DNA of 64,000 nucleotides from a virus, in the IMG/VR virus record IMGVR_UViG_3300033148_007360, positions 1 to 64,000 of that record. One strand, 5' to 3'. The notes under the pieces were generated by a model that saw nothing but the letters and a program-made list of their open reading frames with translations, was not told where the DNA came from and did not search any database. Positions 5,211-62,548 of the stretch are shown in pieces. Positions within the stretch are counted from its first letter, which is position 1. Each line of letters begins with the position of its first letter. The position numbers and the translations under genes are program-made.

Positions 5211-5312
5211 CCCCCAGAACGTTCATATTTCAATTCTAAGGCGTTTTTTATTTTTTAAGGGGGTAGACCCCTTAGAAACCCCTCTGAAGCCACACACGGC
5301 GAATATGGGCTT
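5211..5312. repeat. Dispersed ~110-bp imperfect palindrome, copy A
   Basis: catatttcaattctaaggcgttttt...taagggg gtaga cccctta...gaatatgggc. Confidence 0.85.
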
Positions 5313-5835
5313 AGTGGATAGTATCATTACCTCTACCAAGAAACCCCCCACGCAAAAAAGCCCCCACATGACATTCATCATCATCATCATCGCCCTCAAG
5401 ACCCGAAACTATCCCATGAAGAATCGCCCTTACGATCTCCTCACCGGTCACCCTCACCTTACCAGAAATCGGCGCAACCTCGCACGCTTTGGCAACTGCA
5501 AGGTACGTAAGAACAATTAAAATCCACGCATCCTTCTTATCTTCAAGTTCCAGATTCCCCCCACCCCTCATCCTCTCCATAATCCCAACCCATAAGCAAT
5601 TATCTGCACCCTTGCAATCACTGCAATTCCCTTCACACGGATTACAGGCAGCCTGCCGCGCTACGAAATCAATAACTTCACCATCCCTCTGTATAACCTC
5701 TGGAGGAACTATCCGACGTATCTCCGCAATATTCTTCGCCACAAGCCCCTCCAAACAATACATTATTACACCTGCCGCACCAATGACAGAGATATCTCTA
5801 TATAACTTTTTCTCACCTTCCATCACCTTGCTCAA
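5311..5835 (-). CDS. Hypothetical Cys-rich protein
   Basis: CNPCEGNCSDCKGADNC. Confidence 0.7.
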   Translation of the reverse strand: MSKVMEGEKKLYRDISVIGAAGVIMYCLEGLVAKNIAEIRRIVPPEVIQRDGEVIDFVARQAACNPCEGNCSDCKGADNCLWVGIMERMRGGGNLELEDKKDAWILIVLTYLAVAKACEVAPISGKVRVTGEEIVRAILHGIVSGLEGDDDDDECHVGAFLRGGFLGRGNDTIH

Positions 5836-5845
5836 CCCCCTTCTT

Positions 5846-5907
5846 AAAAAATCGCTGAGGGTGTCGGCACCACTAAAATCCCCTCTCGCATCCCAACACC
5901 CTCAGCG
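5846..5907 (-). terminator. Putative intrinsic terminator (long loop)
   Basis: 12-bp inverted repeat cgctgagggtgt/acaccctcagcg followed by a T-run on the minus strand, just after the DUF932 stop. Confidence 0.55.
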
Positions 5908-5918
5908 GGAGCAAGAAC

Positions 5919-6893
5919 CTAAGCAGCCAACCTCTGACCCTGCACCAAGATATTGCCAGCAAAGTTGTCAATCAGATGCCGTCGCTCCGGGGACTCCTTT
6001 TGAGACTCCCTGGTCAACCGGTCAACAAAGTCGTAAACGGACGGAGATCCCATGTCACCTTCCAGCCCCGACCTCAATTCTTCCACATACCCCTTACCCA
6101 GTTCATGCTGAGCACGCACCCACAGATTCTCATCCACACCTCGATTGGATGCTTGGATAACTGCATTTTGCAATGACTCTGCGGCGCTCGGGAGTTGTGC
6201 AGCCACTTCCGAAGTACGGAGCCGGAGGTCATTAACGAGAGCATATGGCGATCCCCTGTGACCCACATGCTTCCTCTTCATCCCGAATGAAGCCACAGTA
6301 ACTGTAGCCCCATTCGTGCAGACCTCTCGAAAAAGACCGATGGCAAGAAGCACCGACGCCTTACCGACCTCGGAATTGATCGCCGTAAAGCCAACATAAT
6401 GAGGGTCGGATGGCCCCTCCACCTCAAACTTCGGGAAGTGCCCCTTCAACAAAAGCAGGTCTTCGCTGAGAGAAGCCTGGTCAAAAACCAGCCCCAAACT
6501 CTCAACAGCAGTGAACAGTTGCGGAACGAAGTCGGCGTTATTGTACACGGCATACCTGTCCGACAACACCGCTCGGATAGTTCTCACATCATCCCGCAGC
6601 CGGAACAGGGCCGACTTGTCCTCCTTCTGAATCCTTCCCAACCAATAATCCACATTCTGGTGGAGAAGATGAGGAGGACACCTCTTTGCGTAGTTCGTCG
6701 GGATCCCCAGCTTACCAAAAAACTGCTGGGCACCGGTTTCAGTAAGGGAATACCTCTCCCCCGAGAGATTTACTTGAAGACTCCCCCCGGATTCCGAGGG
6801 GGGAACAACCTCAACTTCCTTCCACGGAACAAGTTCGTCCCGCTTTCCCTTGTCATCTTCCTCAATCCTTTCTAAAATCTCCTGTCTTTCCAT
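5919..6893 (-). CDS. DUF932-family phage/plasmid protein
   Basis: RAVLSDRY, NSEVG, FREVCTNG motifs. Confidence 0.8.
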   Translation of the reverse strand: MERQEILERIEEDDKGKRDELVPWKEVEVVPPSESGGSLQVNLSGERYSLTETGAQQFFGKLGIPTNYAKRCPPHLLHQNVDYWLGRIQKEDKSALFRLRDDVRTIRAVLSDRYAVYNNADFVPQLFTAVESLGLVFDQASLSEDLLLLKGHFPKFEVEGPSDPHYVGFTAINSEVGKASVLLAIGLFREVCTNGATVTVASFGMKRKHVGHRGSPYALVNDLRLRTSEVAAQLPSAAESLQNAVIQASNRGVDENLWVRAQHELGKGYVEELRSGLEGDMGSPSVYDFVDRLTRESQKESPERRHLIDNFAGNILVQGQRLAA

Positions 6894-6940
6894 ACCTCTC
6901 TCCTTTCGGTTATGAATTAGTTGGCCCTCATTACGGTAAT

Positions 6941-6969
6941 AAAATACCACATAATTCTCGCCCTGTCAA
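6941..6969 (-). promoter_or_regulatory. sigma70-type promoter
   Basis: TTGACA-17-TATTTT with TGTG. Confidence 0.65.
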
Positions 6970-6987
6970 TAGGGTAGAGAATTTTCT

Positions 6988-7476
6988 TTACTGGCACCGC
7001 ATCCTCTCCAACTGAAACTTGACTGAAACCGCAGACTTACCGGAAGAAACAATTTGAGGCTTTACATAATATTTGGACAGGGTTTTCCCCAGCGCCTCCG
7101 AAACCGCCTCCCCGTAATCCATTCCTGCCGCCAGAGCACAGCTCATCTCTGCCTTTACGTCCCCATTAAAACCCAACGGTAGGGCCACCGTAATCGTGTC
7201 TCCGAGAGGATAATTGAAACCATTACCAATAAACTTGTATTTCCTTTTCGGCCCTGACCGGAAATTACCACGCTCATCAGATTCCGGTACTACAAGACCA
7301 CGCCTTATCAAGCCTGTAATGACAGAATACTTCCGTGGATTCGGATGATGCCCCGGAACTTTCTGCTCAATAATTCTCCCAACGTGCCTCGCAGTAAATA
7401 CTTCACCCTGTTTCAAACTTTCTACTACAGCAGATAAGCACTGTCTATGTACTTCATTTTTTCGCTTGGACACCAT
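6988..7476 (-). CDS. Hypothetical protein (possible winged helix)
   Basis: SD GGAGGT; basic N-terminal half. Confidence 0.6.
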   Translation of the reverse strand: MVSKRKNEVHRQCLSAVVESLKQGEVFTARHVGRIIEQKVPGHHPNPRKYSVITGLIRRGLVVPESDERGNFRSGPKRKYKFIGNGFNYPLGDTITVALPLGFNGDVKAEMSCALAAGMDYGEAVSEALGKTLSKYYVKPQIVSSGKSAVSVKFQLERMRCQ

Positions 7477-7496
7477 TCCCACACCTCCCGTAGGGA

Positions 7497-8270
7497 TTAA
7501 GTTGAAAATATCAACATCGGAACTTCCATCACCTTCTCGTGATAAAATCCATGCAACCACCTACCATCCTCACCCCACGCATCGCCATGATCGGAACACA
7601 TAACAACCTCCGAGTCTTTTACACAGTCCAGAAGTCTCATAACAACACCTTCAAGGTGCTCCAAACACTTTGCTTGGCGGATAAAACACGCATTGTAATC
7701 TCCAACTGGGTCTCCGTCATATCCACATTCACTGAATACATACGGATGGTGTGTCTCGGAAAAATTTATAAACAAAAAATAAGGACTATCCGAATCTGTA
7801 ATTTCACGAGCAGCCCATTTAACTTGTTTAGCCGCCGGACGCTGGGATGGATGCAAAAAATAAAAGTGGTCAAAAAGACCGGTAAAAACACTCCCCCCTA
7901 TAGTCTCAGGATTAAACCAATTCACGCCACCACTACCCAAAGTCCTGTATCCCAATTCAGAAAACCCCTGTGGAACAGTAAAAGCACGCAAGTTATACTT
8001 AGCCACAGCTTTACTTTCTGGTGTACGAACCCCCCACAACCTTTTACCCCTGCCACCCTTTACCCTTCTTGCCGCAGTATCATAAAACGAAGATCCGTCA
8101 TCTGTCTGAGGAAGCCGACCCGTAAAAAACGACCAATGCGCAGGGTAGGTGTAAGTTCCCTGTGTATAAGCTCGCTTCCACTCTCCCAACCCCTTCAACC
8201 GAGGAACACGCGCAGCCTCGAAAACATCCCACCGCAGAGAATCAAAAACTATAAATACTTGATTTTTCAT
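7497..8270 (-). CDS. Sulfatase/alkaline-phosphatase superfamily hydrolase or phosphotransferase
   Basis: IVFDSLRWD, YTYPAH (Thr nucleophile position), ETHHPY, SDHG, HG. Confidence 0.85.
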   Translation of the reverse strand: MKNQVFIVFDSLRWDVFEAARVPRLKGLGEWKRAYTQGTYTYPAHWSFFTGRLPQTDDGSSFYDTAARRVKGGRGKRLWGVRTPESKAVAKYNLRAFTVPQGFSELGYRTLGSGGVNWFNPETIGGSVFTGLFDHFYFLHPSQRPAAKQVKWAAREITDSDSPYFLFINFSETHHPYVFSECGYDGDPVGDYNACFIRQAKCLEHLEGVVMRLLDCVKDSEVVMCSDHGDAWGEDGRWLHGFYHEKVMEVPMLIFST

Positions 8271-8282
8271 TTCCCTGCCATC

Positions 8283-9065
8283 CTACTCACCTACTAATCC
8301 TTTCAGAACACTGGGATACTCCCCCTTATATTCACATATCCCCTTACGTCGTCGTAACAACCGCTGAAAAAGCGGCATTTGTTCATAATTTTCCGGCCAT
8401 GCACACGTAGCACTCTCAATCTTCTTAGCCCATTTAAAATGTAAAAAAGCTGGCTTGTCTATAGAAACGGTTTTCCCGCGTGGCCCACAAAAACATTCTG
8501 TGAATTTGCCGTTTTTGTAAAAAGTCTTGTCCGTTACCTTAAATACACGGGGTTCCGCCCCCGTATATACCCTCTCCCCAACACGCCTCAACTCTTTTCC
8601 TACAATATCAACACCATACAGAGTAATGGTATCACACTTACCCTCTACTATTCTATCTTTAATCTCACGACCCAACCAATCCATCCCAACCATATCCCCA
8701 TCCCATTTGCACACCCAACTACAACTTGTTTTTGATAAGCACCAATTATAAAAATAAGTTCTACTATAAACAGTATCTTCTGGATTCTTTTCATACTCGG
8801 GCCCGTTCGCAAAACAATCAAATGGATACTGATATATCCTTACGGTATCAAGATTCATACTCCTGACGATTTCCTCCGAAGCATCTTTTGAATTGTTGAA
8901 CACAACCACTATCTCATCAATCCAATCTTTTATAGACAATAAACTGTAATAAATCCATTCCTCCTCATCCCTTATCCGTACCATGGCAGACACACCAGAT
9001 CTTCGATTCAAGGCTGAAATTTCAACGTTATAAGCATCAAAACCTTCCCTATTACATAACCTCAT
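8283..9065 (-). CDS. GT-A glycosyltransferase, CgtA-like
   Basis: SAMVRIRDEEEWI, YFYNWCLSK, KWDGD. Confidence 0.8.
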   Translation of the reverse strand: MRLCNREGFDAYNVEISALNRRSGVSAMVRIRDEEEWIYYSLLSIKDWIDEIVVVFNNSKDASEEIVRSMNLDTVRIYQYPFDCFANGPEYEKNPEDTVYSRTYFYNWCLSKTSCSWVCKWDGDMVGMDWLGREIKDRIVEGKCDTITLYGVDIVGKELRRVGERVYTGAEPRVFKVTDKTFYKNGKFTECFCGPRGKTVSIDKPAFLHFKWAKKIESATCAWPENYEQMPLFQRLLRRRKGICEYKGEYPSVLKGLVGE

Positions 9066-9784
9066 CCTGACCTCCGCAAAAAATATCTTCCAAGACTATT
9101 TCTAGTAAGAACCGTATCAACCACACTTTGAGGTACCCTACCTACCAGATTATATATCAAACCACTCTCCACCTCATTATATGGATATGGCGGCTTTTCC
9201 GCCAACCCATAAACATTGTGTTTATCTTGCCAAATGTTTCCAGCCGACACATCAAATCCAACCACCGCCAGAAGATATAACAACTGTGCCACATTCCACC
9301 CTGAATAAAAATGCCCGCTCACCGCTATGTCTTTGTAGAGGGGCACCACAACAGCAACGAAACCATGCGGTTTCAACGCACCATACACACGCCACAAGAG
9401 GTACATAGGTGAAAAACTATGTTCTAAGATGTGGTGTAACCAGACAATATCAACGCTTCCATCCCTAGGAATTAAATGCATATCCCCCTCTATCAACTTG
9501 ATGTTCTCCGCATGGGAAGCCAAGTTAAACATTTCATCCGTAGGAGACACATCATAACATACAACTTGAAAACATCGTTCCGAAAAGAAGCTCGTATGAA
9601 ATCCGTATCCAGGCCCCAGTTCCACCACAACAGAATCCTCCCGAACTGGCAACATCTTCAAAAAATGTTCGGACTTGCTATATAACCTTAGAGCCGCCTC
9701 TTTGTGATAGTTTTGATTTTTAACTTCCGTCCGCGGTACCCTACATACCCTATTGTACCAAGACAGAAAGTTGTTGAAACTCAT
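9062..9784 (-). CDS. Class I SAM-dependent methyltransferase
   Basis: VELGPGYG, GDMH, HILEH, LKPHG. Confidence 0.88.
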   Translation of the reverse strand: MSFNNFLSWYNRVCRVPRTEVKNQNYHKEAALRLYSKSEHFLKMLPVREDSVVVELGPGYGFHTSFFSERCFQVVCYDVSPTDEMFNLASHAENIKLIEGDMHLIPRDGSVDIVWLHHILEHSFSPMYLLWRVYGALKPHGFVAVVVPLYKDIAVSGHFYSGWNVAQLLYLLAVVGFDVSAGNIWQDKHNVYGLAEKPPYPYNEVESGLIYNLVGRVPQSVVDTVLTRNSLGRYFLRRSG

Positions 9785-9794
9785 GACTACACCC

Positions 9795-11816: not shown

Positions 11817-11822
11817 ACTCCT

Positions 11823-12488: not shown

Positions 12489-12519
12489 CCTTAAATCTCC
12501 TCCTGTTTTCCATTCACTA

Positions 12520-13385: not shown

Positions 13386-13412
13386 CGTCCAGCCTCTTGT
13401 CAAAGTGCCTGA

Positions 13413-14539: not shown

Positions 14540-14551
14540 GAGAGTCACCCC

Positions 14552-16515: not shown

Positions 16516-16882
16516 AGTCACCCCTAACAACTCCTTGTAATATCTCCCCAAACCAATCAAGGCAGGATGCCGGGCCTCCAACAGACTGCGCAGGACAACT
16601 TATTCCATGAAAAAGCTTGATAACTCTGCTCGCATCCATACCATCCTGCAACGATTTGCTGATAACACCAGCCAACCCATCAAATACAGACCTCCTGCAA
16701 TCTCCACCCTTACCAACTGTTATAAAAACCTCAACGGGCCGCCGACAATCCTCCGGGTCAACCGACACCCGGAAAAAGAACGAGAACGGCTCCCCTCCCT
16801 CCCGACAATAAAATTTACGCCGGAACGTGAGAGTCGGCAGCACATCGGGGCGATCAAAACTGCGGGGCCGAGAGTTTATCAA
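16499..16882 (-). CDS. Stand-alone TSCPD-domain protein (NrdJb-like, class II RNR C-terminal)
   Basis: EVFITVGKGG, ISKSLQDG, GISC, SCLD. Confidence 0.8.
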   Translation of the reverse strand: MINSRPRSFDRPDVLPTLTFRRKFYCREGGEPFSFFFRVSVDPEDCRRPVEVFITVGKGGDCRRSVFDGLAGVISKSLQDGMDASRVIKLFHGISCPAQSVGGPASCLDWFGEILQGVVRGDYDERG

Positions 16883-17177
16883 CTGTCTCCCCGCTATCGT
16901 TTAACACATAAGCTTTTGTATCAAAGACGCCCACCTGCCGGACGCCATACTGATCTTCATACTCAACCCTGACACCCAAATGAGTCAACGTGTTAGGATG
17001 TTTTGTTATAACTCGTATACTCAGTTGCTCGGCCCCCTCAGAAATAAACTTGGATATGTCCGTAACCTCCCAATCAAGCCAAGACCCCACATCCACCTCC
17101 CTCCACTTTGTTTCCCTCCGCTCACTTCCATCCGGTAGCTGTATCACATTCTCTCCAGTCGCTATTTTCAGATGCAT
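16854..17177 (-). CDS. Hypothetical phage protein
   Basis: C-terminal AYVLNDSGETVDKL; SD. Confidence 0.7.
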   Translation of the reverse strand: MHLKIATGENVIQLPDGSERRETKWREVDVGSWLDWEVTDISKFISEGAEQLSIRVITKHPNTLTHLGVRVEYEDQYGVRQVGVFDTKAYVLNDSGETVDKLSAPQF

Positions 17178-17189
17178 GCTGTCTCCTTT

Positions 17190-17296
17190 CCTCTCACAAA
17201 GCTCATATTTGAATTATGCAGCGCTTTCCATCCTTAAGGGGGTTATATACCCTCCGAAAACAATAAAGATGGCTTAGAACGAAAACATAGCCCTCT
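17190..17296. repeat. Dispersed ~110-bp imperfect palindrome, copy B
   Basis: gctcatatttgaattatgcagcgcttt...taaggggg...ccct...ggcttagaacgaaaacatagccc. Confidence 0.7.
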
Positions 17297-17781
17297 TACC
17301 GCCATTCCATTCCTATCACCCAATACCCCTCAGTATACAACAAATTTTCATCAATTTCAACCCCCGTGAGCGATTCCCAGACGGACTTCTTCGCATCCCG
17401 TTCCTCCCCAGTTAGTATCACCCTAAACTGCGATCCCCTTTCGTCATCAGTGGACAAGGCCACAGTAGGATAAAAACCTTTTGACATTGCAGTGAATAAC
17501 GCCTTGACCGCATCCCTATTCACAATAACAAGTTCCGGCAACCGCTGGCAAAAGAACTCCACAAGAAAAGAGTGAAGACTCTTGCCCGGCGTCTGGACTA
17601 AAGTCGTGTACCCCAACTCACTCTGTCCTTCGTACAACCGAGACACGTCATAGTTCCTGGAGACACACGCATAAATTCTACTCTCTTGGCTCGACCATAA
17701 CCTCCGCATTGTCCCACCGGACTTACCCACTAAATCCTCCGGTGAGTCCGCTACAACTAATCCAGTCTCACACTTAATCAT
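17296..17781 (-). CDS. Hypothetical protein
   Basis: Coupled ORF. Confidence 0.65.
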   Translation of the reverse strand: MIKCETGLVVADSPEDLVGKSGGTMRRLWSSQESRIYACVSRNYDVSRLYEGQSELGYTTLVQTPGKSLHSFLVEFFCQRLPELVIVNRDAVKALFTAMSKGFYPTVALSTDDERGSQFRVILTGEERDAKKSVWESLTGVEIDENLLYTEGYWVIGMEWR

Positions 17782-18085
17782 TGCTTTTACCTAAAATATC
17801 CTGAACAGCGTGTTTCACTCTACGACCAAGAGACCATCCTGGCTTGAACCCAACTTTTACAACAAGGCAACTATCCGAAGATGCCTTAGCAAACCCTCCA
17901 GGATTCAACATATAAGACGTTACAAAAAACTTACCAAATTCCTCCAACCTAACCTCTGATGCCACCTCCAATGACTTTGTAATAACCTCCAAAAACTCCC
18001 GTATCACGGTGCGGGCAGTGTCCACATCAACACCCGTCCTTCTGGATACTTCAAAAACCACTTCCTTCTCCGTCACTCTCAACAA
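17774..18085 (-). CDS. HU/IHF-family DNA-binding protein
   Basis: EVRLEEFGKF, NP, VGFKPG. Confidence 0.8.
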   Translation of the reverse strand: MLRVTEKEVVFEVSRRTGVDVDTARTVIREFLEVITKSLEVASEVRLEEFGKFFVTSYMLNPGGFAKASSDSCLVVKVGFKPGWSLGRRVKHAVQDILGKSND

Positions 18086-20029: not shown

Positions 20030-20564
20030 CCACTCCCTTTATCGAATCCTCGATAGCTGCCAGCGCCCCCCTGACCAGCTCTCGCTCTGAAGGGGATAAA
20101 GAGCGAAAGTGTCTCAACTCCTCCGGTTCGTCATTCTCTTTATTCTCTCCAACAACCTCGCCTTCAATAACTAAAGCTCCCCTTGCCGCCTGCCGCCGCA
20201 GGGATTCGATCTCACTACGCATTTTCAACGTCTGCCGCTGATTATCTATATGCTCCTTTAAACCTTTTAATATCACACCATAGGCCCGCACCACATCTGA
20301 ATACTCCGCATTTTCTATTCGGCTCGGACAAGTCAAAAAATCTTCCATCCGACTGGCAGCGCCCAGCATTCTTTCCACCCTCTCTATCTGAACCATAGCA
20401 GCAGCTATTAAGGAAACCTCCAACTTAGCCTCGTAGTTCTTTAATACGAACCTCACAGCATCCCTGGCACGCTCCACATCGGACTCTTTATTTGAAACGA
20501 CTCTGGCAATCACCCTTAAAGCGTCAACAGCCGTCCCGTCAAACTTTCTCTCATCACCGCTCAT
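20001..20564 (-). CDS. Helical protein, possible terminase small subunit
   Basis: Immediately upstream of terL; coiled-coil character. Confidence 0.4.
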   Translation of the reverse strand: MSGDERKFDGTAVDALRVIARVVSNKESDVERARDAVRFVLKNYEAKLEVSLIAAAMVQIERVERMLGAASRMEDFLTCPSRIENAEYSDVVRAYGVILKGLKEHIDNQRQTLKMRSEIESLRRQAARGALVIEGEVVGENKENDEPEELRHFRSLSPSERELVRGALAAIEDSIKGVDEEVEEDES

Positions 20565-20953
20565 CTAACCACATCCACCTTCAACCTCAAAGTCTCTTCA
20601 AAATACTCTTTAACCGCCTTGTATATCTTTCTTATTCCCGCTTCGGACAGAGAAAAATGACTAGCTAAATCAGCAACGACCTCACTCTCCGTATCCTTAC
20701 CCTCGTGTAACTTCACCCTGGAATAAATGGTAACATCCCTAGCAGCCCTCTCTAAAATATTCCTCGACGGAACCCGAAACTCACACCCCGAAAAAATATC
20801 CAAAAAATCCATCAATTTCTCTTTCCCGAATACTTCGTACAACTCCGGCAGTAACGAGAACTCGTCAAGGTAATATAAATAAACCATCACAGCATCCAAT
20901 TGGCTCCGAGTAACCGGATTCACCAGCAGCAGTTTTTGATCACCCTTCTTCAC
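20561..20953 (-). CDS. Mor/C-like transcription activator
   Basis: ELYEVFGKEKLMDFLDIFSGCEFRVPS + C-terminal HTH; GTGA overlap sets the start. Confidence 0.65.
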   Translation of the reverse strand: MKKGDQKLLLVNPVTRSQLDAVMVYLYYLDEFSLLPELYEVFGKEKLMDFLDIFSGCEFRVPSRNILERAARDVTIYSRVKLHEGKDTESEVVADLASHFSLSEAGIRKIYKAVKEYFEETLRLKVDVVR

Positions 20954-21549
20954 AGAGACTCCCGCAGATTTAACAATGTCATGCGGTAGGTAGCAACAAC
21001 CCACTCCCGCAAAAACTTTACTATACCTATATCAATTCTATAGAATTTAGATAAATACTTTACCTGCCCGTCCGCAATTGATCCATTATTCAACATGCCA
21101 AATAATGCTGCTGTGGCACTCCAGTACGGATCTCGAAATCTTATTCTCGACAGCACTTCATCCCGAACAACAGAACCCAGCTCACGGAGAAAAACATAAT
21201 CTATAGCAGTTGCCGGACTATATCCCTTATCATACGTCTCCAGCTCATACTGCTCTGGCACATCAATCCGGTTCTTACCCATAACACGATATACAGCAGC
21301 AATTGTAACCTTCGACAAATAAGCCTCTAGCCCCTCCTCCCGCTCAAAATATAATCTGTTACTGCCCATAACCCGAGTATATACTTGTATAAACGATTCC
21401 TGAACCACATCATCCCTAAGATGGAGTGCCACCTCTTTGGGTACCCTCGACTTTATAAACCGAAACAAATCACCGGCAAATTCATCCACCCGCTCCGAAA
21501 CTTCACCGCTGTTTATTATCTCCAACAGTCTTGACACATCAACCGTCAC
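20950..21549 (-). CDS. Possible sigma-like factor (region 2 similarity)
   Basis: DDVVQESFIQVY...LEAYL resembles ECF region 2. Confidence 0.4.
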   Translation of the reverse strand: MTVDVSRLLEIINSGEVSERVDEFAGDLFRFIKSRVPKEVALHLRDDVVQESFIQVYTRVMGSNRLYFEREEGLEAYLSKVTIAAVYRVMGKNRIDVPEQYELETYDKGYSPATAIDYVFLRELGSVVRDEVLSRIRFRDPYWSATAALFGMLNNGSIADGQVKYLSKFYRIDIGIVKFLREWVVATYRMTLLNLRESL

Positions 21550-22099
21550 AACCCAACATCCCCCTTACAGCACGCCTCCGAGCAAACTCCGCCAAACAAC
21601 ACGCATCAACAATCCCCTGATGCGCCTTCGTCCTCCGGCTCCCTTGATTAGCTAACGTGAAATCAACGCCTGGAAACAGTCTCTTCGCAACCTGAACCGC
21701 GGAACTCTTCGGATCGCTCTTGTCCATCCCCTGCAATATCTCTTTTTGCCATACTCGCGGGGTTACCAGCTCAAACGAAACTTCATTTGCTACCAGCAGC
21801 CCCTGCCATATACCGAACCCGGTACCGAAAGAAAACATGCTGGTAACACCCTGTCCGGGAAAAGCATGCACCTTCTCATAAGCGCAAAACACCCGGAAAT
21901 CCACGGACAACCTCTTGACTATATCATTCATCTTAGAAATATCGTACTCCTGCCTCTTTTTCTTTCCACTACTCACCTGAATAACAGGAGTTGGCTCATA
22001 GTAGATAAACCCACCATCCGTAAAACCAAACACCCCACCAGTAAGCCCCGGATCAATGCCGACATACATCACAGATTTACCCTGCTCTCTATCCATCAC
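21539..22099 (-). CDS. RuvC-like Holliday junction resolvase
   Basis: GIDPGLTG, EKVHAFPGQGVTSMFSFG, VTPRVWQK, DA. Confidence 0.9.
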   Translation of the reverse strand: MMDREQGKSVMYVGIDPGLTGGVFGFTDGGFIYYEPTPVIQVSSGKKKRQEYDISKMNDIVKRLSVDFRVFCAYEKVHAFPGQGVTSMFSFGTGFGIWQGLLVANEVSFELVTPRVWQKEILQGMDKSDPKSSAVQVAKRLFPGVDFTLANQGSRRTKAHQGIVDACCLAEFARRRAVRGMLGCDG

Positions 22100-35435: not shown

Positions 35436-35618
35436 TCAATCCCTGGGGATTTCGTATAGACCCACCAGTCCGAGAGCCAAAAAGCACGCCGAGAGGAAAA
35501 TGAGGAAAAAGTTGTAGTCAGGCAAGATGGAGAGTTGGTAAGCAACTAAAATCAGGAAAATTCCCAGAATTCCAAAGGACGCCCAACCGAAAAAACCGTA
35601 TTTTTTAAACTTTTTCAT
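35436..35618 (-). CDS. Small 2-TM membrane protein
   Basis: MKKFKK + two hydrophobic helices. Confidence 0.65.
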   Translation of the reverse strand: MKKFKKYGFFGWASFGILGIFLILVAYQLSILPDYNFFLIFLSACFLALGLVGLYEIPRD

Positions 35619-36657
35619 CGCCACCACCCTTTCTCCGTTTATGTTTTGCTCCTATAATATCTGCCCTCTCGTAAACTTCAAGAAGATTAAGAGGGTCGAA
35701 CTTTACTCTATCCTCTGCCAATTCCCGAAAAAAGTCTTCTCCCAACGAGGCAGGGTCTTCACCTTTGGGAAGTGGAAGAATATAGACACTTGCTCCAAGA
35801 GAATATAAAACTTGCGCCGCCCATATTGACTTCTCCAAAGCATCCCCGTCAAGAGATACAGTAATTTCTCTTGTTTTTTCCGCGAGTAGAAAAAGTTGTT
35901 TTTCAGTAGGTATTCCAAAGGTTGAAACAGCATCCAAACCTACCGCCATTGCAGAGATGGGCCCTTCAACCAGAAAACAATGTTTCGGGTTTACAGCATT
36001 ATCCTGATAGAGATGATTGATTCTGTCGCCGCCTGGTGCTGAAAAATACTTAGGTTCCCTGTAATTTTTGACATACGCGCGCGCACGCGCGTAATGGTAA
36101 TTAACTAATCTCCCTGTCCAGTACTTGACTTCCTTATTCTCTCCCCAACTTATGAAAATTACTCTCCCCCTTAAATCTTTTTCCACCTCTTCTCCGTTCT
36201 CCTTTTTCCACTTTACTTTACTTCCCTTGTATATTCCTCTCTCCTCTATTCTTTCCCTTCTTATCCCCCTCCCCAACAAATACAAATACTCCTCCTCCAG
36301 AAAATTTACTCTAGTTAAATCTTCCGGTAAAACAGGAGGAGATCCCTCCCCCCCTATAGTCCCCCCCTCCCTTATTGTCGAATTTGTGTTATATTCAAGA
36401 AACCGGGAGACATCAAAGCCAGGAGATTTTTCCAAAAGAGCCGTATCCTCGTAGGGAATGCCCAGCCTGCGGTGAAGGTTTCTTATCGTACCACCTACCT
36501 GCTCCCGCTGGCAGAACCAACCCCTCTCCGGGTGAACGTAGAGATGATACTTCGTATCCCCCTTGACACAGAAAGGACAATTGAACCGAAACTCCCCTGT
36601 TGTAGTTATCTTGGGAGTTCCAAGAACATCCACTACTCGATAGTCCAATTGTGGCAC
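35605..36657 (-). CDS. DnaG-type DNA primase
   Basis: CPFC zinc finger, GRVIF, WTGR, KY, LVEGPISA, LDGDA, EDP. Confidence 0.9.
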   Translation of the reverse strand: MPQLDYRVVDVLGTPKITTTGEFRFNCPFCVKGDTKYHLYVHPERGWFCQREQVGGTIRNLHRRLGIPYEDTALLEKSPGFDVSRFLEYNTNSTIREGGTIGGEGSPPVLPEDLTRVNFLEEEYLYLLGRGIRRERIEERGIYKGSKVKWKKENGEEVEKDLRGRVIFISWGENKEVKYWTGRLVNYHYARARAYVKNYREPKYFSAPGGDRINHLYQDNAVNPKHCFLVEGPISAMAVGLDAVSTFGIPTEKQLFLLAEKTREITVSLDGDALEKSIWAAQVLYSLGASVYILPLPKGEDPASLGEDFFRELAEDRVKFDPLNLLEVYERADIIGAKHKRRKGGGDEKV

Positions 36658-36690
36658 TGTGGAATTCCTTACTCCGTAGGTTTAAATATG

Positions 36691-36800
36691 CCTCTGTAAG
36701 CTTCACATTTTGATTCTGTGGCGTTTTCTTTTTCTTATAAGGGAAAACCACTAGAAAAAAATAAAAACGCCTTAGAATTGAAATATGGGCTTTCTGGGGG
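36691..36800. repeat. Dispersed ~110-bp imperfect palindrome, copy C
   Basis: cttcacattttgattctgtggcgtttt...aaaaacgccttagaattgaaatatgggc; right arm is the near-exact reverse complement of the copy A left arm. Confidence 0.88.
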
Positions 36801-36911
36801 CAATTTACACTCGCTGTATAATTCTAAATTACGCAAATTCATACCGCACATTATTTCTTCGCCTGCTCCAAGCATTCTTCACACCTAAGAAGCCAACCCG
36901 CCGTTTTTCCC

Positions 36912-38846: not shown

Positions 38847-38875
38847 AATATAACACATTCTTCCACGGTTGTCAA
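38847..38875 (-). promoter_or_regulatory. sigma70-type promoter
   Basis: TTGACA-17-TATATT with TGTG. Confidence 0.78.
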
Positions 38876-39678: not shown

Positions 39679-39707
39679 ATTATAACACTTTCCTACAAGC
39701 CTGTCAA
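39679..39707 (-). promoter_or_regulatory. Consensus sigma70 promoter
   Basis: TTGACA-17-TATAAT. Confidence 0.88.
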
Positions 39708-39752: not shown

Positions 39753-41099
39753 TCAAGAGGGTGAAAAACTTTTTTTGAATTTCAGCGCGTGCCTTTCAAC
39801 TATGCTCATCTTACTGTAATCGGCATCACAATGAACCAACGTGAATTTCCTCCCCCTCCTCGCCTTATCCACCCAAAGCCGCATTTTATCCTCAAGATAT
39901 TCTCTCGGAGACTGATTTACGGAAATGACAAAGTCGGATTCCTGCACTTGCTTCCACGACTCGCCTATCTGCTCTTTGGTTAAAACTTCATCGTCCGCAA
40001 TCTTGACCCGCTGAGCCTGCGCCGCCGTCCACGTGACATATCCTAAGTCGTTTCCCATCCTGCGAAGTTGCTGGTACACAACTCCAAGCGCTCTGTAGGA
40101 ATCTGTTTCATGTTCCTTCGGAAATCTCAAACTCATAGGATAATCTATCACAACTATGTCTGGCGAGAACCCATCCTGTAACTTCAATCGTGACAGGTAC
40201 GCCCTGATTGTATCCGTAGTAGCCTCACGCGGAGGAAAAAATTTAATTCTGAGGTGAGGATCCCTGTTTTCCAAAAGAGCCGCCCGTTGCTGGAACCTTT
40301 CACTCCCCCACAGAACCTCTGTCTGATCCACTTTCAAGAGGTTGGCGGCGCAACGAATCGCGACATCAATTTCATACAAATCCCCTATCGTGATATACAC
40401 CCCTTTATAGCCGAGACGAACAGCATTACAGATGACGTTTGTTAAATATGAACTCTTTCCCCCGCCCGATACTCCGATTACACAGCAAATATCTCCTCTG
40501 GCCGGGCCTCCCAGCAGCGCCGCATCAATGGATTCATACCCGGACGGAATCTTCCGCTCCTGCGATATAGTCTCTTGAGCGGCCAGGGACGGTATCGAGG
40601 TTATCTCCCGCCCGAAGTTCAACCCGAAAGATCCGACCTGTTCTCCCGTGCACAGGGCACGTTGCAACTCGAACGGAGCATCCGACAAGTCCTTCCCATC
40701 CCTCCACTTGCTGGAAATCTTATATATTGCTTCTTTAACCGCTTGCCTTTTTGCAAAATCAACCACTCGGTCAATAACCGGATCTCTGTCCTCCAACGGA
40801 AGTTCAAAGCAGCGATTCAAGGTTTTCAGCGCCGCATCCAGTTGCCGGTTCCCTACGGATTTCCTTTCAGCGTACTCCAACAGTTCCGCTTCTAGAGTCG
40901 CACGATTCACGGGATGACCGTACTTCTCCCTGGCCTTGAAGGCTACCTTCGCCAAGAGGGATAAATCCGTAAAGTCGAATCTTTCGGGTGGAATTATAGG
41001 ACTGTAGTTTTCAAGAAAGGCGGGGTCTCTTATGAGAAAAGAAAGAATGGATTGTTGGAATTCGTATGGAAACGGGTAGCGTCCACTGCCTGAAGCCAT
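39753..41099 (-). CDS. DnaB/gp41-like replicative helicase
   Basis: GVSGGGKS, VVIDY, WTAAQ, DKARRG; start reset to MASGSG. Confidence 0.92.
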   Translation of the reverse strand: MASGSGRYPFPYEFQQSILSFLIRDPAFLENYSPIIPPERFDFTDLSLLAKVAFKAREKYGHPVNRATLEAELLEYAERKSVGNRQLDAALKTLNRCFELPLEDRDPVIDRVVDFAKRQAVKEAIYKISSKWRDGKDLSDAPFELQRALCTGEQVGSFGLNFGREITSIPSLAAQETISQERKIPSGYESIDAALLGGPARGDICCVIGVSGGGKSSYLTNVICNAVRLGYKGVYITIGDLYEIDVAIRCAANLLKVDQTEVLWGSERFQQRAALLENRDPHLRIKFFPPREATTDTIRAYLSRLKLQDGFSPDIVVIDYPMSLRFPKEHETDSYRALGVVYQQLRRMGNDLGYVTWTAAQAQRVKIADDEVLTKEQIGESWKQVQESDFVISVNQSPREYLEDKMRLWVDKARRGRKFTLVHCDADYSKMSIVERHALKFKKSFSPS

Positions 41100-41107
41100 C
41101 AATATAC

Positions 41108-41218
41108 CTCCAGAAAGCCCACATTTCGTTTGTGTGGCGTTTTTTCTCCCTGAAGGGGGGTTACCCCTTGATTGAAAATAAAAGCGGCTCACAAGGCGAT
41201 TGTGAAGCCCGTGAGCCG
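41108..41218. repeat. Dispersed ~110-bp imperfect palindrome, copy D
   Basis: ccagaaagcccacatttcgtttgtgtggcgtttttt...aagggggg tta cccctt...gcgattgtgaagc. Confidence 0.82.
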
Positions 41219-41229
41219 TTAATTTGAAG

Positions 41230-42992: not shown

Positions 42993-43762
42993 GACTTTAC
43001 AGCACATCCACCTCTGTGTAACTCCACCGGAAGGAGGGGATAACAATAACTGCCTGAACACTGTGCTTTCAGATAAACCCTCCCCTCCCATAATGAACGA
43101 TAGATGTCATTATAACAGGAAATCGGGTGATGTGCAAGAGCCGCTTCCGATGAATCGAATATCGCACTCGGTCCTATCTGCCCGTCTCTTAAATCAAGAA
43201 GCGCCTCTGCTCTCTTGTACGCCGACTTTGGCTGTGTTATGCCGTCGAGATCACTGGCAACTTTCATTCCCAGAAGAATTGCAAACGTTGTACCGGTAAT
43301 GGTTTCATATTGCAGCCCACGACTCGTTTTTTGAGGAGGGCAGAGCCATGAAATAAACTCCGCCGTAACATAATCCACAATCATCAGGGGAAACTTCGCT
43401 ACAAATACGTTTACCACGTACTTCAATGATGTCTGAACTTCAGGCGTCTCCACCTCCGTGGGGGCATTCATCAAGCGATAAGCCGCCCAGTGCTCTTTGA
43501 CACTCCACGGGAAACCGTTTGTCTGGGGATGTTGTCGCGCTCCTACGGAATCGAGCCACTTCAAATCACTCTCGACCATGAAAAAAGGATCCAAGTCGGG
43601 AGGTAATTTACCGAAGTATTGTCGGAAGTACCCTTCCGTATCGGTAAGATACTGCCACGCAGCCGCCAACTGCTGTTGATAGTCGAACTTCTCGTATCCG
43701 GGCGGCGGAAAGTACTTACGTCTTCCGCCAAACGGATCTTCAAGCACCCCCTGTATCATCAT
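42974..43762 (-). CDS. Hypothetical protein
   Basis: SD GGAGG; long ORF. Confidence 0.7.
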   Translation of the reverse strand: MMIQGVLEDPFGGRRKYFPPPGYEKFDYQQQLAAAWQYLTDTEGYFRQYFGKLPPDLDPFFMVESDLKWLDSVGARQHPQTNGFPWSVKEHWAAYRLMNAPTEVETPEVQTSLKYVVNVFVAKFPLMIVDYVTAEFISWLCPPQKTSRGLQYETITGTTFAILLGMKVASDLDGITQPKSAYKRAEALLDLRDGQIGPSAIFDSSEAALAHHPISCYNDIYRSLWEGRVYLKAQCSGSYCYPLLPVELHRGGCAVKSWGLLV

Positions 43763-56218: not shown

Positions 56219-56219
56219 C

Positions 56220-58448: not shown

Positions 58449-58744
58449 TACTCCCCTTCCATGATCTTCCCAAGAACTTTATCAATCGGAGGCATACGCA
58501 GTATCATACCCGGAACCGCCCCGTAAAACGGGTCTTTTATATCATTTACATCCGCTATCACCCACCACAGCGACTCATCTCCGTAAACTTCGAGCGCTAC
58601 CATGTCCAGCCTTCCTCTGGAATCCGCTGGCATCACATACCACTTATCCCTATCGGACTCTTCGACGTTTACCATTTTGTAGTGCCCCCAGTAAGCAGTT
58701 CCGTCTATCATGATTTTTGACGATCTCTTTTTGTACCTGTCCAT
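58448..58744 (-). CDS. gp53/LysM-like baseplate protein
   Basis: RLDMVALEVYGDESLWWVIADVN. Confidence 0.88.
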   Translation of the reverse strand: MDRYKKRSSKIMIDGTAYWGHYKMVNVEESDRDKWYVMPADSRGRLDMVALEVYGDESLWWVIADVNDIKDPFYGAVPGMILRMPPIDKVLGKIMEGE

Positions 58745-58756
58745 CGGAAGTCACCC

Positions 58757-59434
58757 CTAAGCGACAAACGGTAATTTCTTCAAGATTGATCCTAAGCTGC
58801 CAGCAGCTACACCTCCAAGCGTTGACAACGACACAGCACCCCCCTGCGCAACAGCCTTTATCTGCATAATCGTTGCATCAGGCGCTCGCAGCCAGAATGA
58901 CTCGCATTGAAATGACAGATTCACCTGTACTATCCCCGGAAGATGCTCCAACACGGAAAAGGGCGGCCTGTACTCGACATCGTAACCCATTATCCTGCCT
59001 TGCTTCATCAGGAATAACGAACCCATACTAAGAAGAACCTTCATCGGGGGAATCACGCCCGGCCCTCTCAGATACGTGGGATATACAAACGACTTAAGCA
59101 TCTCAAGACGCCCCTGAATCACCCCCTCATCGTAAGGCTCCTCGGAAATAAGAAATATCGGGAACTCCACACGGGCAGCGCTGGTATTCTGATAGTACAG
59201 AAAGGGTTCGCTCCGACCTTTCACATCCTGTGCTTCATAATTTACTTCGATCCTGTGGGAAATATTCTCGTAATACCAGAACTCGAAACCCAAACCCGGA
59301 ACCGGAATGTTGGTGGTCTGCTCCAACCCGATAATAACTCCGTGAGCACGCATCTGGCTCAGGAGAGCCTCGGCAGCGGAGGTTATCTCGGATCCACCGT
59401 AACTAGCAGGATTTGTTGCTTTCAACAAAGACAT
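58757..59434 (-). CDS. Tail tube initiator (gp48/gp54-like)
   Basis: GRSEPFLYY, VYPTY, PP...G. Confidence 0.72.
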   Translation of the reverse strand: MSLLKATNPASYGGSEITSAAEALLSQMRAHGVIIGLEQTTNIPVPGLGFEFWYYENISHRIEVNYEAQDVKGRSEPFLYYQNTSAARVEFPIFLISEEPYDEGVIQGRLEMLKSFVYPTYLRGPGVIPPMKVLLSMGSLFLMKQGRIMGYDVEYRPPFSVLEHLPGIVQVNLSFQCESFWLRAPDATIMQIKAVAQGGAVSLSTLGGVAAGSLGSILKKLPFVA

Positions 59435-59449
59435 TAAACTGTTTGCTCC

Positions 59450-61450
59450 TCATCCACCGGTTTCTTTACTTCCGGGGCCTGTTCTAGCATTCTCCTTTTT
59501 ACTGTTTTTTTGCGTTTCCCTGGCCACCTTCGTAAGGTTCCTCAATTCCTTGATTATAGCGTCACGTTGCCTTTCCGAAATCCTTTGCTCAAGGGAGATA
59601 GAAAGAGGCTCCGCCTCCCACTCCCGCTTCTTTGTTGTCAACGCCGTGTAAACATCCTGTGGTGTCACTCCTCGAGCAGTCATCGCCTGAAGTGCCGCGG
59701 TGTAGACCTTTCCCTTCTCCCCCCGCAATTCCTCCAATGTCACATGCTCACCAAAAATAGCCTTCCTTATACCCCTGCTTTGCTCCTCTACCTCCTTCCG
59801 TGTCCAAGGCTCTCTACCTCCAGCTCTTCTCCTCCCAGCCCACGTCGCGTATTCCGCTGCTAATACCTTTTCAGCAGTTTCCTCCCGAAACGGAAGATCC
59901 ACTGTAAGCCACCACCTCATAAATCGGTTCTTAAAGTAGTCAATAAATCTGCCCAAAGCGCCTATAGTGTTATCGTAAATCCACCAACCGAGTTTTTTCA
60001 ACTGTTTCTTGCCCCAGTCATAAAGACGTTCCCACCATGCTTTCTTCCCCCTCTCCGGTTCCAGATTCAGCATATCCTTTATAACTTCCCACGCTTCTTT
60101 AGCTCCTGCTATAAATCCCTGCCAGACGCCACCCTTCTTCTTTTCCTTGGCAAACGCACTCATAATCTTATCAACCCCCCTCTGCATCTTATTCACACTC
60201 TTTGTTATTTCCTTTAACGCGTCACCAAACCATTCAAGAAGGGTTTTTCCCCCGACCGTCCTCGTAATAGCAAACGACTTCCACGTCTGCACGAACTTGT
60301 CCCAGAGATTTGAAAGGGTCCTCATCTTATTCGTCCACGTAGACTTGATATCCGCACCTTGACTGGCCCTGATTGTATGCTCCACCTGTTTCCACACTTT
60401 TGTCTTGCGTTCGGCCAGCATCTCTACGAATGCCGGTGGAAGTCCCAGTTGCTGCGCCAGATTAAACCGCATACCTTTACTGCTTATCCCCTCGATCCGC
60501 TCCTCTAACTTTTTCAGAACGGCAACCGGGCCTATCCTCTCAGCTTCCTTCATGTTCAGTCGTAGAAATGCCGCCAAGTAATTACCTTCCGCTCCGCGGA
60601 ACGCTGAAGGCGTAAGCAACGTCTGCATAATATCCTGTAGCGGCCCTATATCAAACCCGGCTTTCTTCAATGCACCGGCAGCTCCGGCCATTTCCTTTAC
60701 GAACTTCTCTCGGAATTCGGGAGCGATGAGATAAGACATTTGCTTCATGCTGTCCACAAGACCCGCAAGTTCCTCGCCGGTCATGACTCCCTGCCTTTGC
60801 AAACCAAACAGGTAATCGGTGAATTTGTCTATTCCACGCTTACTAAACCCAGCCGCTGAATATATGTTCATGAAATTTGCAGTGAGCTGAGCAGCGGTTT
60901 CAAGAGAGAGGCCCATCGTGTCGCGCATCATTACTACTTGCCTAGCCATCGAACCCATTGACTTGCGCATGGGATCCGATACGTCGCTGACATTATACAA
61001 AGCCCTGAAAGCTCCAATAGCGGACTCGGTGGTAATAGCCATGTCCTTAGCCAAGTTCGCTATTGTACCCTGTAACTGCACCAAGTTCTCCATAGTCAGG
61101 GGAGTAACATCCGCGAGTCCGTACAGGCGCTCCTGAAAGGCGGATAGCGCCCCAACGCCCTTTCTCGCAAGACCACCAATCCACTTTCCTACCACAACCG
61201 TTCCGAAAGTAACAAGTATGTTTTTTATCGTCTTGAACACTCCCCCCAGCTTCTTGATTCTAGAAGTGGTCTCCTCCAACGACGTCTCAATCCGACTTAA
61301 GTGATCGCGCATATCATCAGCAACTCTATCAACAGATCCCTCAATATTGGTCAAAGACTTTTGGATAGTCCTCGACTCCCTCTGGAGATTGTGCTCAATC
61401 CCCAATTCCCAGAAGAGTCGGCCCATCGTTATTTGAGTTGACGGATTCAA
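59450..61450 (-). CDS. Tape measure protein
   Basis: Helical, Ala/Gly/Trp-rich; follows the chaperones. Confidence 0.8.
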   Translation of the reverse strand: MNPSTQITMGRLFWELGIEHNLQRESRTIQKSLTNIEGSVDRVADDMRDHLSRIETSLEETTSRIKKLGGVFKTIKNILVTFGTVVVGKWIGGLARKGVGALSAFQERLYGLADVTPLTMENLVQLQGTIANLAKDMAITTESAIGAFRALYNVSDVSDPMRKSMGSMARQVVMMRDTMGLSLETAAQLTANFMNIYSAAGFSKRGIDKFTDYLFGLQRQGVMTGEELAGLVDSMKQMSYLIAPEFREKFVKEMAGAAGALKKAGFDIGPLQDIMQTLLTPSAFRGAEGNYLAAFLRLNMKEAERIGPVAVLKKLEERIEGISSKGMRFNLAQQLGLPPAFVEMLAERKTKVWKQVEHTIRASQGADIKSTWTNKMRTLSNLWDKFVQTWKSFAITRTVGGKTLLEWFGDALKEITKSVNKMQRGVDKIMSAFAKEKKKGGVWQGFIAGAKEAWEVIKDMLNLEPERGKKAWWERLYDWGKKQLKKLGWWIYDNTIGALGRFIDYFKNRFMRWWLTVDLPFREETAEKVLAAEYATWAGRRRAGGREPWTRKEVEEQSRGIRKAIFGEHVTLEELRGEKGKVYTAALQAMTARGVTPQDVYTALTTKKREWEAEPLSISLEQRISERQRDAIIKELRNLTKVARETQKNSKKENARTGPGSKETGG

Positions 61451-61453
61451 ACA

Positions 61454-61645
61454 TCAGCCTCCAAGGTTGAATACATCCTGCGGAATCATTTTTTTCATCA
61501 CCTGCATCAACTCTACAACAAGAAACTCCCTCTCGAACGGAGTGAGTTCGTCATATTCTTCAAATGAAATCCTCCCGAACTTGGCCATGTAGAGTTTCTC
61601 CCGCAATCTATTCCTCATTATCTCTTGGCGGTACCTCTCTGGCAA
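61454..61645 (-). CDS. Tail chaperone C-terminal ORF (gp51/gpT-like), probably reached by frameshift
   Basis: LTPFEREFL motif; overlaps the upstream ORF in the +1 frame. Confidence 0.65.
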   Translation of the reverse strand: MPERYRQEIMRNRLREKLYMAKFGRISFEEYDELTPFEREFLVVELMQVMKKMIPQDVFNLGG

Positions 61646-62411
61646 GTCTACGAGGACGAAAAAACTCCTGATTTATCGGCAACCCGTACCCCTCCAAGAC
61701 ACTTCCGCACACATCGCATGTCAAGTTCAGGTTTAACTCCACGCCGTACTCGGCTTCCACGGCTTCCAGAAAGTAAGCGGAGTCCTCTCCTATCAAGTTC
61801 CCGATAAACTCCCTTGCCTCCCCTATATTGAGTTCCTTTCCGTCAACCCCCACGACAAACTTCGCCATACGAAAGATGAACTCCGGGTCACCTTCGTCCG
61901 GCAATCTGTTCTGTCTTGCATTTTGTACAAAGTTTCGAATGGCGTGCAGGTCGGAGCCACGAAGGTCTCTCCATTGAACAACGTGGCCGGAACGAGGGAG
62001 GATCATCTCGAAGGGTTCGTCTTTTTCAAGGTAGTTGACACGCAACTTCGTTAAGTCAATAACTTTTTCTATGGAATTCCCGCACATACTGCATGGTATG
62101 GAAGAACCCGAACCTATAGTATAGTCGGAACCGTAACTAAGCGCCCTTATTCGGATAAGCAAGTGCAGCCTGTCTTGTAAAGTGATATCTTCAGGGCGAA
62201 GGTTCGGCTCCGCAATGCAGTTCCGAAATATCATATCCATTGAACTTTCGTAGGATTTTCCCCGGGACCCGAACAGTTTCGCCTCATGCTTGGTACGTAT
62301 GGGAGTTATTCTCACCGTTCCCGGAACTCCCTCCGGCCAATCTTCTATCCCTGAATACAATCTCCCATTAGACGCAAGAACAAAAGTGTCTTCATAACCA
62401 TCACCAGCCAT
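61608..62411 (-). CDS. Baseplate hub/tail assembly chaperone (gp26-like)
   Basis: LASNGRLY, DRLHLLIRIRALSYG, two CxxC, EFFRP. Confidence 0.82.
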   Translation of the reverse strand: MAGDGYEDTFVLASNGRLYSGIEDWPEGVPGTVRITPIRTKHEAKLFGSRGKSYESSMDMIFRNCIAEPNLRPEDITLQDRLHLLIRIRALSYGSDYTIGSGSSIPCSMCGNSIEKVIDLTKLRVNYLEKDEPFEMILPRSGHVVQWRDLRGSDLHAIRNFVQNARQNRLPDEGDPEFIFRMAKFVVGVDGKELNIGEAREFIGNLIGEDSAYFLEAVEAEYGVELNLNLTCDVCGSVLEGYGLPINQEFFRPRRLAREVPPRDNEE

Positions 62412-62441
62412 AATTGACCTCCTTCTGACTTTTATTTAGCC

Positions 62442-62548
62442 CCAATTTGGGCCATATTCGCTTTGTGTGACGTTTTTTCTTTTCGCAAGGGGGATCCCCC
62501 CCGAAAAGATTCAAAGCCCGCAGAATCGAAATATGAGGCTTACAGAGC
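62442..62548. repeat. Dispersed ~110-bp imperfect palindrome, copy E
   Basis: gccatattcgctttgtgtgacgtttttt...aaggggg at cccccc...cagaatcgaaatatgaggcttacagag. Confidence 0.85.

Follow-up and report, generated by a model that had tools for sequence, protein, structure and literature searches.

Genomic Setting and a Family of Intergenic Palindromes

The window considered here, the whole stretch of DNA that was analyzed, comprises bases 1-64000 of the 99,067-bp IMG/VR virus record IMGVR_UViG_3300033148_007360 (CheckV completeness 59%), in which copies of a palindromic element lie dispersed between the genes of a large myovirus. The structural genes of this phage encode a T4-type portal, baseplate J, tail sheath, tail tube, prohead protease, and major head protein, and its replication and DNA genes include those for a family A DNA polymerase, DnaB-type helicase, primase, beta-clamp, fused Mre11-Rad50, and HU-family protein. 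Every credible open reading frame (ORF) across the whole record lies on the minus strand, as a preliminary description of the sequence had held in calling the genome one-directional. The closest cultured phages infect Bacillota (Bacillus SP-15, Listeria LIS04, and SPO1-like phages), at protein identities of just 24-32%. Megablast against phages returned no close relative of the record, a helicase search in viral contigs returned a single relative at 25% and no close one, and a protein search with the helicase gave a best match of 28% identity, again without a close relative.

Five palindromes had been reported in the preliminary description, and all are present where it placed them (elements A-E, Table 1). 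The inverted matches that it noted between copies were recovered as well: the left arm of A matches the right arm of C over 52 nt at 87%, and the left arm of C matches the right arm of E over 42 nt at 81%. Repeat detection added a third inverted match, between the right arm of C and the left arm of D (38 nt at 82%), and grouped the copies into the direct families D3/D4. When run over the whole 99-kb record, a five-copy profile recovered its own members at E values of 1e-24 to 2e-29 and added a sixth full copy (element F, E 3e-24) and a half copy (element G, profile match at 87798-87855, E 9e-10), both beyond the window. The family therefore totals six full copies, each an imperfect palindrome of ~118 bp, and one half copy. 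A single-arm profile found 13 arms in the 99 kb and nothing further below E = 10.

Anatomy of the Element

Read along the minus strand, the parts follow one another as the upstream stop codon, a distal (mirror) arm, a T-rich tract, a central GC dyad, an A-rich tract, a proximal arm, a ribosome-binding site, and the start codon of the next gene. The dyad has the form AAGGGG-N3-5-CCCCTT; it is weak in C and spans 15-17 bp in the other five full copies. If the N of the NTG trinucleotide that ends each arm core is taken as +1, the dyad is centered at -39.5 from the NTG of both arms. The distance from NTG to NTG is 78-80 bp, and the spacing between the two arm cores is constant at 37-39 bp.

The arm itself is asymmetric, with a ~27-nt core, AAAACGYC-yyAsAAT-ysAAAT-NTG, within a cassette of ~45 bp; toward the outer end of the element it reads AAAACG(C/T)C-(T/A)(T/C)A(G/C)AA(T)-(C/T)(G/C/A)AAAT-N-TG-RRC. 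Its hexamer yAsAAT takes the forms TAGAAT, CAGAAT, and CATAAT, and the NTG follows 6 nt downstream. Across 26 aligned arms, the three A's of the hexamer are conserved at 100% and its final T at 77%. For the arms of other phages, the search patterns account for part of the invariance, a bias that does not touch the 13 arms of the present phage or the additional ones of G001, another phage record described below. Within the NTG, the T is conserved at 100% and the G at 96%, the N is occupied by A, G, or T but never by C, and conservation is sharply lost past this point. Neither a -35 element nor a TG extension is seen in the arms. The A-tract upstream of the arm is doubled in this phage. Two arm subtypes occur, recombined among the copies, and proximal arms usually outscore distal arms against the arm profile. 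The half copy G retains the proximal arm only, so that the arm also occurs alone.

Table 1. Copies of the palindromic element, their adjoining genes, and candidate trans-acting proteins
Feature	Position	Strand	Description
Element A	5207-5324		proximal arm 5207-5258 (minus-strand reading); dyad AAGGGGG-TAGA-CCCCTT 5257-5273; decayed distal arm 5274-5324
Gene downstream of A	4627-5226 or 4627-5202		arm ATG (5226-5224) in frame with gene
Element B	17187-17306		proximal arm 17187-17239; dyad ~17236-17255; decayed distal arm 17255-17306
Surroundings of B			distal arm overlaps TAA stop (17296-17298) of upstream ORF; downstream gene 16854-17177
Element C	36687-36804		proximal arm 36687-36738; weak center 36738-36752; intact distal arm 36753-36804
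Gene downstream of C	35605-36657		primase
Element D	41103-41222		proximal arm 41103-41154, ending in ribosome-binding site GGAGG; dyad 41153-41169
Distal arm of D	41169-41222		remodeled: strong minus-strand hairpin followed by CTTTTATTTTC, terminator-like
Gene downstream of D	39753-41099		DnaB-type helicase
Element E	62436-62552		proximal arm 62436-62487; dyad AAGGGGGATCCCCC 62487-62500; distal arm 62501-62552
Surroundings of E			distal arm overlaps stop of tail-tube gene; downstream baseplate-hub gene 61608-62411; E heads the baseplate genes
Element F	76242-76359		outside window; heads prohead protease and major capsid genes
Element G	87799-87850		outside window; gene-proximal arm alone
Mor/C-family activator-like ORF	20561-21004	-	147 aa; phrog_836 (late transcriptional activator), E 1.8e-7
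Orphan sigma-like ORF	20950-21549	-	199 aa; Sigma70_r2, E 0.007 and 0.13
HU-family DNA-binding protein	17774-18085	-	103 aa; phrog_379; PF00216, E 8e-8; candidate architectural protein

Placement at Gene Borders

Each element fills the gap from the stop codon of one gene to the start of the next, and 20-60 nt ahead of each of the seven gene-proximal arms lies the gene start at which it aims. In A, B, E, and F, the upstream gene has its stop codon within the distal arm or a few bases past it, and the outer end of the proximal arm forms the ribosome-binding site in A and D. Copies C and D had been described as lying directly upstream of primase and helicase, and these genes do follow them. Elements E and F occupy the only sizeable intergenic gaps of the 33-kb structural block (76.2 to 43.7 kb), within which a sigma-70 scan found no canonical TTGACA-17-TATAAT promoter.

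Canonical TG-extended promoters are found elsewhere on the minus strand, at 96294, 43136, 39707, 38875, 35426, 35054, 14539, 4610, and 1962. Three of these sites (38847-38875, 39679-39707, and 1935-1962) are near-perfect TTGACA-17-TATAAT sequences with a TG and share an upstream block, AAAAAGC...CCTCTTGACAA (repeat family D7); the D7-associated promoters are presumably the early promoters of the phage. At 43136-43109, a sigma-70-like promoter (TGCACA-16-TATAAT with TG) precedes the gene for an SNF2-type helicase. Readings of the arm itself as a SigH-type, extracytoplasmic function (ECF)-type, SPO1 late-type, or sigma-A promoter were tried by eye and dropped, as none gave a consistent -35 element or spacing across the copies.

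The NTG of several proximal arms opens a short reading frame. In D, this frame has 7 codons (41122-41097), and its TGA overlaps the helicase ATG (TGATG); in G, it has 17 codons (record positions 87818-87765), and its stop overlaps the ATG next to the ribosome-binding site (ATGA). The frame in B has 12 codons (17206-17168) and ends 7 nt into the gene, that in E has 7 codons (62455-62432), and the arm ATG of A is in frame with its gene (5226-5200). These frames could be leaderless or coupled leader peptides, or they could be due to chance.

Arms in Other Phages

Arms resembling those of this phage are found in viruses to which it is otherwise unrelated. The arm pattern matched seven times in the IMG/VR viral contigs, as against once for a reversed control pattern, and a looser pattern gave 20 matches, about half of them with extended similarity. 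Among 185,579 bacterial species genomes, arm patterns gave 0 and 2 single matches, a chance level; the arm is therefore neither a CRISPR (clustered regularly interspaced short palindromic repeat) sequence nor a common prophage or host sequence. The possibility of a solitary CRISPR repeat or RNA anti-CRISPR was rejected on these chance-level matches and on the variation of the ATTGAAA part among arms. A literature search for the arm sequence yielded one coincidental match.

Record G001 (132 kb, 95% complete) has no protein in common with this phage at E values below 1e-5 and carries at least five arms, including sites outside those on which it was selected (E 4e-6 and 3e-4). The similarity spans ~45 nt (GGACGTTCTAGTGGTA in one phage versus GGACGTTTTAGATGGTA in the other). 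Two further arrangements were observed in this record. An inverted duplication of ~215 nt (L025:6417-6631 and L025:9250-9464), each side of which holds a gene 3' end and one arm, brackets 2.6 kb with four unknown ORFs, and its arms point inward, opposite to the doublets of the present phage. At L025:5711-5745, 25 nt past the stop codon of a gene, a perfect hairpin of 11 bp, GGCGTTCAAAT...ATTTGAACGCC, has an arm-like core (CCTTAGAAACGAAAT) in its loop and 3' stem.

Comparison among the other arm-bearing contigs places a boundary at the end of the arm. Two of them, L019 and L020, have in common only a ~125-nt island of homology that ends where the arm ends, and both flanks are unrelated. This island opens with a hairpin and T-run about 70-100 nt upstream of the arm. 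Contigs L011 and L045 are 96-98% identical from the arm onward, versus 84-88% upstream of it. In the relatives, homology breaks off right after the NTG. Small phages carry the arm as a single copy, and the genes beside arms in other phages have no common function. In two complete or near-complete small phages, a dyad precedes the single arm (approximately L013:6685-6700, AAGGG-TTG-CCCC, and L043:3190-3205, GATCG-GGCCA-CGATC); its center lies near -30, one helical turn closer than in the phage studied here.

Proposed Interpretation as Back-to-Back Promoter-Type Cassettes

The reading that we tentatively prefer, with a probability of roughly 0.42, is that the element is a duplicating back-to-back pair of promoter-type cassettes. 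The gene-proximal arm would serve the gene that directly follows as a signal of promoter type, for initiation or control, and transcripts would start at or beside the NTG. The reading draws on the aim of every proximal arm at a gene start and on the place of E and F in a structural block free of canonical promoters. The hexamer is read as a -10 element because its conservation profile is that of a -10 element, and the NTG is read as the start because it lies six bases past the hexamer and homology ends there in the relatives. A dimeric protein, an activator or an architectural factor, could then dock at the central dyad and substitute for the missing -35 element, in the mode of dyad-dependent activation known from the Mor/C-dependent promoters of phage Mu; the phage has a Mor-like gene of its own. 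The whole doublet would be the unit that is copied, in either orientation. After it settles, selection would keep the proximal arm, and the mirror arm would decay (as in A and B), become a terminator (D), or be lost (G). That A, B, D, and G have all kept the proximal arm suggests selection for a function in cis. Copies C, E, and F, the more symmetric ones, with C and F as the closest pair, would fit such a history.

Candidates for the bound proteins are encoded in the window (Table 1). The Mor-like and sigma-like ORFs overlap each other and adjoin a gene for a RuvC-like resolvase (21539-22099), and together they are a possible late-transcription pair of the phage. Four of six arm-bearing records, this phage included, have an HU-family gene, as compared with one of nine control records. 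A T7-type RNA polymerase was matched in none of five records, a result that carries little weight since the control genomes gave no match either.

Several observations weigh against the promoter interpretation. The simple sigma-70 scan does not call the arms, though it calls true promoters nearby, and the proximal arms of D and E have A, not T, at the last position of the hexamer. Downstream genes mix primase and helicase with baseplate and head functions, which would be unusual for a single promoter class, and transcription from the intact distal arms of C, E, and F would run antisense into the gene upstream. In other phages, some pattern matches fall inside ORFs and may be due to chance, and most arms either have no GC dyad or are accompanied by dyads of a different kind at a different distance. 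Between one of the G001 arms and its gene lies a full canonical promoter, and three of the five arms in that record are aimed against the local genes. Both candidate regulators are also uncertain. The Mor-like ORF scores 23.6 bits against Pfam Mor, just under the 24.9-bit cutoff. For the sigma-like ORF, the top Foldseek matches are ECF sigma factors, all at non-significant E values of 0.09 or higher and obtained with a single-sequence model of predicted local distance difference test (pLDDT) score 55, and no homologue was found in 1.8 billion representatives, leaving it an orphan.

Elsewhere in the record, a run of 30 N's at 93183-93212 marks masked sequence or an assembly gap. Two regions, 72121-72521 of the record and 43092-43739 of the window, appear non-coding in a crude ORF map and probably hold uncalled minus-strand genes.

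Alternative Readings

A selfish or neutral dispersed palindromic repeat, spreading as a doublet and carrying its promoter-like features incidentally, is unlikely yet the likeliest of the alternatives. Its models would be the miniature inverted-repeat transposable elements (MITEs), the Correia elements of Neisseria, and REPIN doublets. Correia elements and REPINs are palindromic units of ~100-150 bp with inverted arms that lie between genes in both orientations and also occur as solo arms. Correia ends can create outward-facing promoters, and Correia transcripts can be cut by RNase III. The present family resembles MITEs and Correia elements in having terminal inverted repeats on a short non-coding unit that occurs in several copies and in both orientations. 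With one of the two flipped, elements C and F share 81% identity, compared with 67% unflipped; the whole doublet has thus been duplicated as one unit and lies in both orientations in a genome whose genes all face one direction. The recombined arm subtypes, the solo arm of G, the presence of arms in phages without common proteins, and the portable island between unrelated flanks are likewise what a mobile repeat would leave behind.

Such an origin had been named in the preliminary description as a non-autonomous mobile repeat, and the two orientations and the arms in unrelated phages lend that suggestion partial support, but the traces of transposition are missing. No consistent direct repeat was found at symmetric offsets around the six copies, neither a TA nor any other target duplication. 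The Y1/RAYT transposase (PF01797) is absent from this record (59% complete) and from four other arm-bearing records, although control genomes were matched, and there is no transposase of any kind among the annotated genes. With just 6-7 copies in a phage genome, the family also differs from Correia elements and REPINs in that all copies abut a gene start, and selfish spread would explain neither this strictly intergenic placement nor why it is the proximal arm that persists in A, B, D, and G.

A bolder combination of both ideas, which we regard as improbable, is a phage-specific, horizontally moving palindrome (a 'phage REPIN') with an outward promoter lacking a -35 element at each end. It would be spread by an unknown enzyme among phages without common genes and would rewire operons, and starts at the NTG would yield messages that are leaderless or that open with a short leader ORF coupled to the gene.

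About equally doubtful is the proposal, raised for the HU-like protein in the preliminary description, that the elements are binding or wrapping sites for an architectural protein, either the HU-family protein of the phage or a nucleoid protein of the host, which would bend DNA at operon borders without acting as promoters. The alternation of A/T and G/C patches pointed out in the preliminary description is real, since it is not reached in any of 1000 shuffles or of 1000 windows drawn at random from the genome, but its period is 9.5-10 bp and not 10.5-11 bp; because the six copies are homologous, it counts as one observation. This phasing with long A-tracts, together with an asymmetric core of ~27-30 bp, the size of an IHF/HU-type footprint, would suit a site of this kind, and the layout of the proximal arm of C (A-tract, 8 nt, AATCAA-N4-TGA) is one that we take to resemble the lambda H' site. 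The HU-family gene found here and in three of the five other arm-bearing records, against one of nine controls, is suggestive but weak, as the counts are small and many control records are fragments, and an HU gene is missing from one complete genome that bears the arm. In the arms, variation or mismatch affects the positions on which IHF depends most, namely the TCA of WATCAA and the second T in TTR. A canonical IHF site, WATCAANNNNTTR, was accordingly rejected: the corresponding arm positions are T in 77%, C in 50%, and G in 65% of arms, and the second T is G in 96%. Moreover, the closest relatives infect Bacillota, which lack IHF, and an architectural site would leave unexplained both the stop of homology at the NTG and the direction of the arms toward gene starts.

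At the RNA level, the arms might pair within read-through transcripts and direct an RNase III-type cut, stabilize the upstream message, or bring about termination, a role that we consider quite improbable. The position at cistron borders is appropriate to it, and some copies do fold far beyond shuffled sequences on the gene strand (z -6.5 for C, -4.6 for F, and -2.1 for E), with the plus strand behaving similarly. The distal arm of D forms the best hairpin-plus-U-run of the genome (-20.4 kcal/mol) and is the sole arm that qualifies as a terminator. Arm-to-arm pairing is nonetheless loose, as first described: a single hairpin spans only C, F, and in part E, separate local hairpins form in A (z -1.8) and D, and B folds no better than shuffles. 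Alignment folding of the six copies with RNAalifold gave a weak consensus of -6.8 kcal/mol with a covariation term of +2.5, many broken pairs, and the best-conserved mid-arm unpaired, so that the earlier view of a symmetry of double-stranded DNA rather than an RNA stem holds, covariation being absent on testing. No Rfam family matches the element. The central GC hairpin is not an intrinsic terminator because on both strands the U-run lies before it and an A-run after it, and neither the half copy nor the single arms of other phages could pair in this way. A hairpin within the single arm (CACA...TGTG, or CCUUAGAA/UUCUGGGG) was examined in 31 arms and rejected; an apparent T-A to C-G switch fails, and many C-A and T-T combinations occur.

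The main inference of the preliminary description, that the palindromes are strong gyrase sites relieving supercoiling in a one-direction genome, is very improbable and went unsupported: the elements have the generic features (long, roughly symmetric, with 51-67% identity to their own reverse complements and hence not truly so, helically phased, and set among genes on one strand), but an asymmetric arm that persists alone, occurs as a single copy in small phages, points to gene starts, and has a sharp, fixed homology boundary at the NTG is not expected of a gyrase site, and no link to gyrase or topoisomerase was found.

Relation to Known Regulatory Cassettes

The element is best filed as a variant of the portable phage regulatory cassettes; its promoter layout is Mor/C-like, and it comes closest to the promoter-early stem-loops (PeSLs). 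In the PeSL cassettes of T4-type phages, a terminator stem-loop comes first and a canonical sigma-70 early promoter follows it (PMC2839356, PMC4122927). Small, composite, and regulatory, such cassettes recur in the intergenic gaps of a large myovirus, as do the elements described here. PeSLs also provide portable homology at the borders of unrelated gene modules, and the L019/L020 island acts in this way (PMC4122927); the arm sits at such module junctions in the L019, L020, and L008 contigs. In place of the canonical -35 and -10 early promoter of a PeSL, the arm has a -10-like hexamer only, and a possible counterpart of the upstream terminator is seen only in D, with its good hairpin and U-run, and in the L019-type cassette, about 100 nt upstream of the arm. 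Further differences are that PeSLs are one-directional, whereas the present element is a mirror-image doublet of a non-canonical arm without a -35 element, and that it also precedes replication and structural genes and is common to phages without detectable protein similarity.

The layout of the arm recalls the activator-dependent promoters of Mu. Pm, the middle promoter, carries a -10 and no -35 element, and a 16-bp element centered at -43.5 holds two 5-bp inverted repeats to which a dimer of Mor binds (PMC4390567); the late promoters lack -35 hexamers and need C (PMC2582627). In sequence form only, the arm likewise combines a -10-like hexamer with no -35 element, and a short GC-containing dyad made of two inverted repeats of 5-6 bp stands ~40 bp upstream of the putative start. 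The phage also encodes a Mor-family-like protein, albeit with a sub-threshold match. The dyad differs from that of Mu in lying at about -39.5 rather than -43.5, in serving two divergent arms, and in its unrelated sequence.

Divergent promoters around a shared center are familiar from other phages as well. The lambdoid PR and PRM promoters stand back to back ~80 bp apart with common central dyad operators, and PRM has the -10 sequence TAGATT, an AUG at +1 directly after it, and a site near -42 from which it is activated. In the switch region of the phi29 A2c/A3 promoters, the binding site of p4 is an inverted repeat between T/A tracts, and a histone-like protein acts together with p4. Both of these arrangements occur once per genome as a switch, whereas the element described here is dispersed in six copies whose mirror arm faces the 3' end of a gene.

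Implications

The finding opens no new field; its bearing is on a group of deep-branching, uncultivated myoviruses. If the elements are only a selfish repeat, they would still join the small number of MITE-like repeats so far described in phage genomes. Should the arms be promoters, they would represent a non-canonical transcription signal of this group, would pair a cis element with a candidate activator, and would extend the PeSL idea past the T4-type phages and to a mirror-image form. The 27-nt core found in phages without common proteins would then be a case of regulatory DNA, not genes, moving between phages.

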